Assembly: GCA_964035575.1 (NCBI GenBank)
Contig: OZ037836.1
Span: 682,001-746,000 of the forward strand
DNA from: Rhynchopus sp. YZ270_cl-10
Taxonomy: Eukaryota
DNA length: 64,000 nt
Direction of reading: 5' to 3'
Below the pieces are notes generated by a model. The model saw only the letters and a list, made by a program, of their open reading frames with translations. It made no database searches and was not told the origin of the DNA. The position numbers and the translations under genes were made by a program. The first letter of the stretch is position 1, and each line of letters opens with the position of its first letter. Positions 21,801-24,965 of this stretch are shown here, one piece after another.

Positions 21801-24800
21801 CGTCGCGCCGTCTGGTGTCACTGCTGTCCCCCACAGCTGCACACCCGGAGAACAGGAATACCCGGCCGCAAAGACGTACCCATCCGGTGGGCACACCGAC
21901 ATCCCGAACGACGTGATCGTCATGTCCGGCATCTCCGACGGGATGCTCAGCCCTGTCGTGCCTGTCTGCGCCTCGAACCAGGCAGCGACGTCCGCCAGTT
22001 GCATGTCGCACGTTGCCTCACCACGCAGCGCGACGCCGTCTGTGGTGGAGTACACCCCTGATAGAGAGATGTCGCACAGATCCAGTGACACGTGCATCTG
22101 CGCCTCTGTGAGCGGGAGGTCGAACTGCAATGACGCCTGTGTGACGGTAACGTCGATACCGAAGGGGTGCACCCAGTTCTCCACCACCGCACCAAAGTAG
22201 CCGCCACCACCGGCATACGCACCGCCGTACACAGACAACGCCACTTCGTCCGCAGCAGACGTACCCCACTTCAGGCGCCCCTCCGCCTCGAAGAAGGGGC
22301 TCACGTCCTTCGTTGTCCCTGCTGTGAACACACCCACTCCGATCGTTACGCTGTCGAGCATCAGCGTCACACCGCCTGCAGACGACAACAGCACTGCACT
22401 GGGCAGCGGCAGGGGTGCGCGGAAACGCAGGTACGCATCAAAGTTCAGTGAGTTCAAGCTGTGCCACGTGGGCACCACTGCCGTCACCGCAAACGGTGCC
22501 GCGAAGCCCCCTACATGAGACACCAGCTCGGGCACAAAGGTGAACACGTCCCCAAGCCCCACGGTGCAGGAGATGTGCACCTCGGCCGTGCCCTCGGTAT
22601 CGTGCAGCACCAGCAGACGCTGGTCCTCAAACGTCAGCCCGCCCAGCACAGGCAGGAGCGGTGCCGTCCCCTGTTGTGCGCGGAAGACCGCAAAGTAGTA
22701 CTCCCCAACCACAAGCGCGTGCAGTGTCAGCGCCACGTCGTTGCCCGAGGCCAGCGTCGCCACAGCAGCGCCCGTCTTCGCCTCCGCCGCAGCAAACGTT
22801 GTGTCCATCTCGGGGAACAGCTGCAGCATCGCAGTGTACTCAGACGCGAAGGTGTCTCTGTCTGCAGCCGTCAGCCCCGTCAGCGCCTTCAGGCCCAGCG
22901 CCGTCTCCAGGTCCGTCGCGTCTGTCGACAGCACTGCGGCCTCGCGGTGTTTGGTTTTTTTTGGTTCGTACAGATGCTTGAAATAGATATGAACGTAGAC
23001 GTTCAACATGACAGCAGGGCGCAACGTGCCCATCAACTCAAATCTCTGCTTTGCAATTACCCTTGTATGCGCCTCAATAGTGTACATCAGGGTCTTGGGG
23101 GCAAAGCGCGCACCACCTTCCCACAGCTTTGTCACAAGCTCTCTGTTGGGACCCACTATATTCTTGTAACCCTGCGACAGCAGCGTCTCAAAGGTAATCA
23201 TGTGTGAGTTCGTGTGAGACGTTCCGAGCATCAGGTTGTTAGGGTTGTCCGTCGGCCTGCCAGCAAGGCTGTGTCCCACTCTGTGCAGCCACTCGTATTT
23301 TTGGTTCAATGCTGCTCCATTCTTACTGCAAGCTTCTGCCACGTCTTTGGCCGAGTACCCCCCCATTGTTTTGTGGGTGTCGATCCTCTTTGCGCCCTTC
23401 TTGCCATCAAGGTTATACTCGAGCGTTTTGACGTATTTATTACGGTCTTTAGTTACTTTTACTATGCTGTGGAGTTTCGTCACTATGTCTTTGCATTGTT
23501 GCACATTTGTCTTGAAGTTCATCTCGTCCTCATCCTCCTCGTCATTGAATGGTGCGGCCTTGTACCTGTCTGTGACGACATTCTTCTGGTAGATCGAAAA
23601 TTCTTGTCCTGTAAAAACTAACACCCAGGGATGTTGGTTCGCCTGTGGTTCGGTGAGGTACTCAACTAGCTGATTACTGTAGCCCGCGTCCTCTATCCTT
23701 TTCTTCATATCGTTCTTAAATTTGTCCTGCTGATCCGTTGCTATTTTGAGGTAGACCCAAATGACTGCGTCAGATGCAAAGCGCCCGAAGGGGTTGTATG
23801 AGAACCCACCAGACGACGCCGACGCAGGGACGTCTTCAGGGAACGTCGTGATGATTTGCTCGTAGGCGGCATCAGGGAGGGTCAATACTTTGTCGACAAA
23901 CTTCTTGTCCACTATCGGTGCTGCCTTCACCTTCCCGATGAACGGAATATCGTACACGCCGTCAGGATTCCAAAACATGACAGGTTCCTCATCCTTCCTC
24001 ATGTCTTTAAGTGTGGTGGGTGGGTCCAATGGTTCATTAGCTATCTTCTTTTTCGCAAGCGCCGCAAGCGCCTTGAGGGAAATGAAGTAGTCATTTGTTT
24101 TGAAGTAAATAGTGTTTGAGACTTCGGGGAAGACATAAGTCATGAAGCGGTCAGGGTCGTCCGTTGTGAACATCTTTTCGAAGTCGTACCCTCGTGGTTC
24201 AACATCGTGAAGAGCACTAATTACTTCGTTGTCTTGAACCCACTCAGCCTTAAACGTCCGTGCCTCATCGTAGCGCCCTCCGGCTGTGAATTCGATTTGG
24301 ATATGCTTCTTGAATTCAGCCCGGCTCATTGCCTTCAATAGAGTTACAGTCTCAAAAATTAACCCTCCAGATTCTAAGTCCTTTGAACCAACCTTAATAG
24401 AGAAGTTATCGTGCAGATGAATAGCTAATACATCACTCTCCAAGGTGAAGGTCACTCTAGTGCCTTTTGGAATTTCATGATGCCCATACCCAAAGTCAAA
24501 CCTCGTAATAAGAACCTTGTTGTATTCGTGAAATGTGTCTCTGTCGTCCGTTGGGATCAGTGTCTTTGAGAGTGTGTTGATGTCGTCAATATATGTCTTC
24601 ACATCGTCTTTGTAAAGTGCAGCGTTTTCCTCTGCGGAGCCTCCCTTCATGGATTTGGGTGCTATACACACACCGACGGAGTCCTTAGTCTGTTCGAAGC
24701 AGGAGGTTTTCGGATGCTTAATTGTGAATGCATTTGTGGGTCCTTGACTCCATTTCCCTTCTTTGTGCGAGCGTGCACACACGGAGGGGGTGCACTCCTT

Positions 24801-24965: not shown

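Follow-up and report, generated by a model that had tools for sequence, protein, structure and literature searches.

The single uninterrupted reading frame of 8024 amino acids (848 kDa) that runs from 24965 to 891 on the minus strand of the window (the whole 64,000-nucleotide stretch analysed here) is, as judged from its alignments, a chimera of two giant protein families: family A (aa 1-1181), with a predicted nuclease, and family B (aa ~1198-8024). These alignments place the real graft at aa ~1182-1197 (window ~21375-21422), about 1.5 kb (~510 codons) downstream of the sharp compositional break at 22950, which the original prediction had taken for the edge of a recently swapped-in effector cassette. 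The 8024 codons contain no stop or frameshift. The parts of the protein are listed in Table 1.

Table 1. Features of the 8024-aa reading frame, in window coordinates
Feature	Position	Strand	Remarks
Predicted signal peptide, aa 1-14	24924..24965	-	hydropathy peak 2.51; short, called from hydropathy alone; identical in P0001, P0006
Cys-rich small domain, aa 15-101, strongly variable	24663..24923	-	9 Cys among the first 100 residues
Variable head region, aa 102-388, no known family	23802..24662	-	32-50% identity to P0006 per 60-aa block
Conserved pre-nuclease segment, aa 389-471	23553..23801	-	YNPFGRF ... IYQK motifs; aligned in P0006-P0010, P0012
His-Me non-specific endonuclease domain, aa 491-672 (predicted)	22950..23495	-	basic, pI 9.8
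Active-site residue H561	23283-23285	-
Active-site residue N577	23235-23237	-
Active-site residue N586	23208-23210	-
Active-site residue E593	23187-23189	-
Compositional break	22947..22952		variable head / conserved body boundary within family A, not fusion point
Family A body fragment, aa 673-1181	21423..22949	-	acidic, no Pfam family
A/B graft, aa 1182-1197	21375..21422	-	16 residues, poor match to either family
Family B giant body, aa 1198-8024	891..21374	-	own signal-like peptide missing
RTX nonapeptides, aa 4503 to ~7793	~1587-11459	-	27 nonapeptides

The compositional break lies within family A

An abrupt change of codon style near 22950 had been predicted, and a sliding GC3 and codon analysis found it. 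Fitted by maximum likelihood, the GC3 shift lies at codon 672 (window 22950); over the first 2000 codons the log-likelihood gain is 60.5, and none of 50 shuffles exceeded 8.8. Nucleotide GC shifts at window 22947, and synonymous codon usage between EPKKTK and HREAAV. The first ~670 residues are indeed AT-richer and lysine-rich: aa 1-672 have a GC content of 0.476, a GC3s of 0.56, and 9.7% lysine, versus 0.633, 0.81, and 2.5% for aa 673-8024. The head had also been called compositionally foreign, but its GC3s sits inside the range of six neighbouring ORFs (0.55-0.66), so the outlier in the window is the GC-rich body and not the head.

Contigs from three of the four short-read runs (X1, X2, and X4) cross codon 672 exactly (22869-23234/23226, 0 differences, 0 gaps), so the join exists in the DNA. 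We had considered an assembly slip at a run of eight A's near 22955, and these bridging contigs reject it. In run X5, a single contig crosses the junction with 2 differences and 1 gap.

The break at codon 672 divides a fast-diverging head from a conserved body. Compared with P0006, its closest relative, the head is 48% identical (307/635) and the body 82% identical (417/511), and P0006 has a 22-residue insertion at the boundary itself. Not all of the head varies: its first 14 residues are the same as in P0006, and the nuclease is the constant part, with 83% identity over aa 541-600 versus 32-52% in the other 60-aa blocks. Head windows that are at least 75% identical to P0006 have a GC3 of 0.68, and those below 50% identity have a GC3 of 0.53, a modest link (Fisher p 0.023, conserved versus all other windows); the nuclease-core codons 561-600 score as body-like. 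As a lesson of method, the sharpest GC break in this gene corresponds to a shift in divergence rate, and the true fusion point is almost silent compositionally.

Family A: nuclease, then body

Family A proteins have a leader, a Cys-rich domain, a variable region, the nuclease, and an acidic body, with HYR-like repeats in some members. Each of the four best nuclease matches is a giant protein in which the domain likewise lies close to the N-terminus (aa ~430-720 in P0006-P0009): P0006 has 2775 aa, P0007 and P0008 from Diplonema papillatum have 3784 and 4046 aa, and P0009 has 3421 aa. Residues 1-1182 of the window protein align to residues 1-1186 of P0006 with 59% identity, and all four alignments pass aa 672 and end at about aa 1182 (1362 for P0009). 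The matches to two Sulcionema specki transcript products (P0010 and P0014) likewise continue past aa 672, and P0012, a leaderless metagenome protein, matches the window ORF on both sides of it. These alignments show that diplonemids have in common a nuclease followed by the body at aa 672, so the cassette was not newly swapped in there, contrary to what had been proposed; the order is common to P0006-P0010, P0012, and P0014.

The family A body in the window ends after ~500 residues, versus ~2100-3400 in relatives. It resembles DUF6603 (0.82, 24% of members), which we take as a lead only. Five relatives have 8-9 cysteines within their first 110 residues, and a Pfam search with the Cys-rich domain gave PSI and Paramecium_SA matches, both below cut-off. 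The nuclease is the same in every family A relative obtained, although it was itself the search query, so that other tips on family A bodies may be missed. P0001, with an identical leader and a related head, ends at 444 aa and could be an orphan head or a fragment.

P0012 (Logan and JGI/IMG, 2307 aa) has a family A nuclease and body followed by a long Gln-rich, coiled-coil-like tail; no Pfam family matched it, and it is a candidate donor-type system. Scans for loci that would show the gene context of P0012 or of family A yielded none that could be used, and tblastn against plasmids gave no match. One hit (L002) was discarded as a chance match in a transposase-like gene. In another locus (L001:720-943), a weak family A nuclease match extends over two frames, is apparently interrupted, and is followed by body-like ORFs; it is possibly an intron-containing relative in another eukaryote.

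The summed contig depth in X1 is 1093 over the leader, 1828 over the nuclease core, and 406-2433 over the body, values that are not copy numbers. The variable head, by contrast, is present as one exact 1256-bp contig in X1, of far lower depth (128), and in X2. Among the contigs listed, variants lie over the body, which indicates paralogs, and in X2 and X4 others skip 24681-24915 and so lack precisely the Cys-rich domain. Most simply, this would be a family of many copies in which conserved anchors alternate with segments that change fast.

Family B and the graft

A search with aa 673-2200 returned only proteins whose matches start at aa 1175-1198 (P0002-P0005); P0034 was added later. Family B proteins are 6373-7455 aa long, and four of them (P0002, P0003, P0004, and P0034) start with a hydrophobic leader of their own, so that the paralogs with the same giant body and other N-termini that had been predicted do exist. 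P0004 is a complete transcript product from Rhynchopus euleeides. A nuclease motif or other N-terminal add-on was found in none of the six eukaryote-type family B proteins. Residues 1189-8024 of the window protein align to residues 20-7455 of P0002, with 82-97% identity in the full 300-aa blocks past the join. As aa 1-1182 match family A and aa 1189-8024 match family B, the graft falls in or beside the 16 residues that match neither well. The family B part is ~10% different from its closest relative, which may be from another species, and is undamaged. More distant, bacterial-type RTX relatives of family B are 24-29% identical over aa 3550-4350.

GC3s rises from 0.76 before the graft to 0.81 after it (p 0.005), a small step compared to that from 0.56 to 0.76 at codon 672. 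A 738-nt contig from run X5 (21232-21969, depth 4.8) spans the graft end to end with 9 differences and 0 gaps, and at least 139 nt of it are on the family B side. Run X5 may share its source with the window. Because this is the sole graft-crossing contig among the 32 pieces listed, of more than 3400, and its depth is low, it is support for the graft and not proof. A family B variant contig in X1 stops at 21369. A frameshifted remnant of the family B leader at the graft is weakly suggested for the leader of P0002 (22 and 13 of 400 controls equal it), and nothing was seen with the three other family B leaders. A spliced-leader-like motif had no match, which is uninformative.

The RTX repeats of the family B part are recognised with PF00353 (E 1.4e-77, 255 bits versus a cut-off of 23, 23 stretches), and the acidic body of the ORF has a pI of 4.2-4.3. 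By hydropathy, there is no hydrophobic C-terminal anchor: the C-terminus is hydrophilic, and there is one marginal hydrophobic stretch, at aa 3991. No Pfam family for adhesion, ligand binding, or cell anchoring scored above cut-off in the ORF. In NCBIfam, the head had no match and no RTX toxin model reached its cut-off (180 of 1000 bits).

The nuclease domain

We searched aa 451-672 against 1.84 billion representatives and obtained 26 matches, 24 of them with the motif; the two that lack it (P0011 and P0017) were dropped before alignment and tree building, which left 25 rows, including the window domain. Residues W559, H561, N577, L578, G581, N586, and E593 are invariant in all 25. The two peptides quoted in the original prediction are both present in the ORF, and its His-Me motif is borne out by these invariant residues and by the fold matches below. 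One point on the histidine needs correcting: the invariant one is the first, H561 in EWLH, and the second, H565 in GHSL, varies among the relatives.

AlphaFold, run with the relatives' alignment, gave a best model with a pLDDT of 76 and a pTM of 0.76; the other four of the five models reached 52-56, and a single-sequence model just 34. In the best model, H561 closes a strand (E67-71) and N586 is in the first turn of a helix (H93-112). The top 10 structures in VIA-align are all nucleases of the Serratia/NucA/EndoG/EndA/EsaD type (group 5), led by Serratia nuclease (1g8t; Z 8.2, rmsd 4.3, 146 aligned), which is near the level that the tool calls common, and followed by EXOG, NucA, Sda1, EndoG, Spd1-type, EndA, and EsaD. 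Of the 12 chains with Z of at least 5, two are ENPP nuclease-like domains and the rest are NucA/EndoG-type nucleases; the best unrelated chain after them has a Z of 4.0. The top four Foldseek rows are also group-5 nucleases (EndA, E 0.014; EsaD, E 0.021), none of them at E ≤ 0.001. Searches of PDB sequences gave nothing useful for the domain. The window domain does not match PF13930 in Pfam, and six of the 25 aligned relatives do so below threshold (best 22.5 bits versus a cut-off of 27); the top ESM Atlas matches for the domain point to PF13930 at 0.93. We conclude that aa 491-672 are predicted to have the His-Me, group-5 nuclease fold.

Group-5 enzymes combine a strand-1 His with an Asn in the loop and a second Asn, on the helix, that binds the metal (PMC5714182), and the pattern H561/N577/N586 fits this description. 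The studied group-5 members read DRGH (PMC5714182). As the window domain reads EWLH, as do the relatives with sub-threshold PF13930 matches, we assign it to an EWLH subgroup and not to the classical DRGH enzymes. The Glu of EWLH may be in place of the Asp of DRGH, and the domain is predicted to work, most likely, like a secreted NucA-type nuclease.

Origin

In a midpoint-rooted tree of the 25 nuclease domains, which has several long branches and in which P0006 and P0009 are labelled diplonemid by inference, the seven diplonemid-type rows form one group (92/86), with one origin in 94% of bootstrap trees. Together with P0012, P0015, and P0022, they form a 99/98 set; the other side of the tree holds the eCIS-core proteins and other metagenome rows. 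Three of the nuclease relatives (P0013, P0028, and P0029) carry an eCIS-core (DUF4157) domain and have the nuclease at the C-terminus. The tree fits a single old acquisition of a nuclease-plus-body unit. The predicted kinship to bacterial toxin-type nucleases is supported by these eCIS-core/Endonuclea_NS_2 relatives, and the predicted eukaryotic host by the named relatives from Rhynchopus euleeides, Diplonema papillatum, and Sulcionema specki, which make a diplonemid, a marine flagellate, the very likely source of the window.

We found no published description of family A or family B, but the HGT and secretome tables of PMC10161547 and of bioRxiv 10.64898/2026.01.29.702485 may list the genes. 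The D. papillatum genes DIPPA_34312 and DIPPA_17775 did not turn up in the four supplementary files of PMC12697944 that were searched. A literature search for diplonemids and RTX returned one paper, which is unrelated. A homologue of a bacterial enterotoxin has been reported in one diplonemid (bioRxiv 10.64898/2026.01.29.702485). The nuclease fold is a known one, but the eukaryotic architecture around it seems not to have been described before, and in the window it is joined to a second giant family.

What the chimera might do

On balance, we lean towards a young, in-frame chimera of families A and B that arose by recent recombination in a diplonemid genome and that would be a secreted, non-specific DNA/RNA nuclease on a huge acidic stalk. 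The signal-like peptide of family A would send the whole chain through the ER, standing in for the lost leader of family B. RTX repeats stiffen with Ca2+, and those of the family B part would bind it and stiffen outside the cell, while the acidic body would hold the basic nuclease domain behind the variable Cys-rich head. H561 would be the general base, and N586, helped by E593, would hold Mg2+. At the cell surface or in the feeding apparatus, the nuclease could cut nucleic acid from prey or from the surroundings, and its most likely role would be in feeding or in clearing DNA matrices. Such digestion would agree with the presence of extracellular DNases among the structural matches, and D. 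papillatum is reported to digest material at its surface (PMC12697944). The low GC3 of aa 1-672 could result from fast divergence or from head exchange among paralogs, with the multi-copy bodies staying homogenised, perhaps by GC-biased conversion, and GC-rich.

A bolder version of this reading, which we hold only tentatively, is that diplonemids mix and match giant secreted effectors from bacterial parts: a hypervariable Cys-rich head for recognition and a constant eCIS-toxin-type nuclease would be shuffled at conserved anchors and moved between stalks of several thousand residues, and the 8024-aa chimera would be expressed, selected, and caught soon after the move. It is less likely that the graft, though real DNA, is a young accident, a truncated family A gene joined to a decapitated family B gene, silent or neutral, with the intact family A genes being the working nucleases. 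As both families appear to be multi-copy, accidental products of this kind are expected, and no other chimera of A and B was among the 40 proteins retrieved. Also, an in-frame join has a one in three chance of occurring by accident, which counts against our preferred reading as well; the 16-residue join fits neither family; and 25 of the 40 listed differences (of 244) between the window copy and the variant contigs change the amino acid. Against an accident, the frame is open throughout, the signal peptide and the active site are intact, and the family B part has diverged by ~10% from its closest relative, possibly one in another species, without damage. That the graft is an assembly chimera of two repetitive families seems very improbable: both bodies do seem to be multi-copy and no listed piece covers the whole stretch, but the X5 contig aligns over its full length and without gaps across the graft, and the frame is kept.

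It is also unlikely that aa 1-672 are a foreign effector cassette recently swapped in at 22950 or, in a weaker form, that family A paralogs trade heads at the conserved HREA anchor. The sharp break, the change in identity to P0006 from 48% to 82%, the insertion in P0006 at that very place, and the existence of P0001, with the same leader and a related head that ends early, speak for such a swap. However, diplonemids and P0012 have the same order, the closest relatives of the head are family paralogs and not bacterial proteins, the GC3 of the head is in the range of its neighbours, and codons 561-600 are body-like; the foreign form in particular is contradicted by the relatives' alignments and by the nuclease tree. 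Similarly improbable, in our view, is that the nuclease acts as a cytotoxic effector inside the cells of prey, hosts, or competitors, with the Cys-rich head recognising the target under an arms race. The head is hypervariable, EsaD from S. aureus is among the fold matches, and the C-terminal domain of the three eCIS-core relatives is in an arrangement that has been linked to toxins (PMC8213781). But no translocation, autoprotease, or pore domain was recognised, there is no small immunity-like gene among the listed ORFs of at least 150 aa, and many of the best structural relatives (Serratia nuclease, NucA, EndA, Sda1, and Spd1) are extracellular DNases.

Few marine protists are as abundant as diplonemids, yet little is known of how they feed on, invade, or compete with other organisms. 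The two giant families of secreted type, apparently undescribed and one of them with an intact bacterial-type nuclease, are handles on diplonemid feeding, invasion, and competition, and D. papillatum (DIPPA_34312 and DIPPA_17775) is open to tagging and editing. The locus also shows how giant proteins may gain new architectures through recombination between families.

Other features of the window

Apart from its one huge ORF, the window has few genes and many repeats. Over ~490 bp, the sequence 5' of the giant gene (25162-25638) shares 90% identity with that 5' of the next upstream gene (29853-30323), as if an upstream block had been duplicated or rearranged recently. A ~480-aa gene that matches no Pfam family and encodes a hydrophobic stretch near the C-terminus is present twice (92%), at 28377-29937, where it is split into two ORFs, and at 38128-39678; the copies differ most in mid-gene. 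An element with terminal inverted repeats of ~550 bp (87%) at 40800-44778 looks like a DNA transposon, with no transposase family recognised. It has a 618-aa ORF (42383-44239, minus strand) with C-terminal C2H2 zinc fingers and a GC3s of 0.55, low like the head, and a 310-aa ORF that extends into the left repeat. Near-perfect palindromes of ~1.2 kb at 44804-45995 and 52077-53270 (arms of 542 and 564 nt, 98-100% complementary) are fold-back elements with spacers of 42 and 7 nt, and are ~68% alike. A tandem array at 34358-35955 has ~30 units of 54 bp, and a dispersed repeat at 25850-26200, which recurs at 304-650 and 36171-36345, has a summed contig depth of up to 338,000 (X4). Finally, an open-ended 660-aa ORF (62017-63999, minus strand) has a Laminin-G domain and a hydrophobic segment; its C-terminal part presumably resembles adenylate-cyclase-like receptors (no match).

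Comparison with known systems

The nuclease domain shares its predicted fold with His-Me group 5 (PF13930/PF01223; Serratia nuclease, NucA, EndA, Spd1/Sda1, EndoG, and EsaD; PMC5714182), along with the strand-1 His, the loop Asn, the helix Asn, and the downstream Glu, and the window protein is probably secreted as well. It differs in reading EWLH instead of DRGH, in being just 10-18% identical to solved members, and in sitting near the N-terminus of a eukaryotic family of 2,800-8,000-aa proteins.

With bacterial polymorphic toxins and eCIS-core proteins (PMC3482391 and PMC8213781), family A shares the EWLH-type nuclease and a modular build by recombination. In those systems, the toxin is expected at the C-terminus and, in contrast, the window nuclease is at aa 491-672 of 8024; it is N-proximal and constant, and what varies is the head that precedes it and the stalk that follows. 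The window ORF has an ER-type leader and no bacterial secretion domain was seen in it. Neither an immunity gene nor orphan cassettes were found among the window ORFs of at least 150 aa, and the window ends 890 bp past the stop codon. Because the nuclease does not change across family A, the definition of a polymorphic toxin does not fit. Of the proposed "eukaryotic polymorphic-toxin-like" design, the eukaryotic setting and the bacterial toxin-type relatives are supported, and the exchangeable tips are not.

Giant bacterial RTX proteins (PF00353, for example P0035-P0040) have the same acidic body of multiple thousands of residues with RTX nonapeptides. Family B is eukaryotic and its members start with a signal-like peptide, and two of the bacterial-type relatives end in weak metallopeptidase matches that are absent from the window ORF. 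RTX proteins are exported by a type I secretion system (PMC3034196), whereas the window ORF is eukaryotic and has an N-terminal hydrophobic leader, with no transporter gene among the window ORFs.

The nearest parallel within diplonemids is with their secreted CAZymes of bacterial origin (PMC10161547 and PMC12697944; the main texts contain no word starting with "nuclease" or "RTX"). Those enzymes likewise have a probable horizontal origin, family expansion, and digestion at the cell surface, but the window protein is far larger, and its substrate would be nucleic acid.
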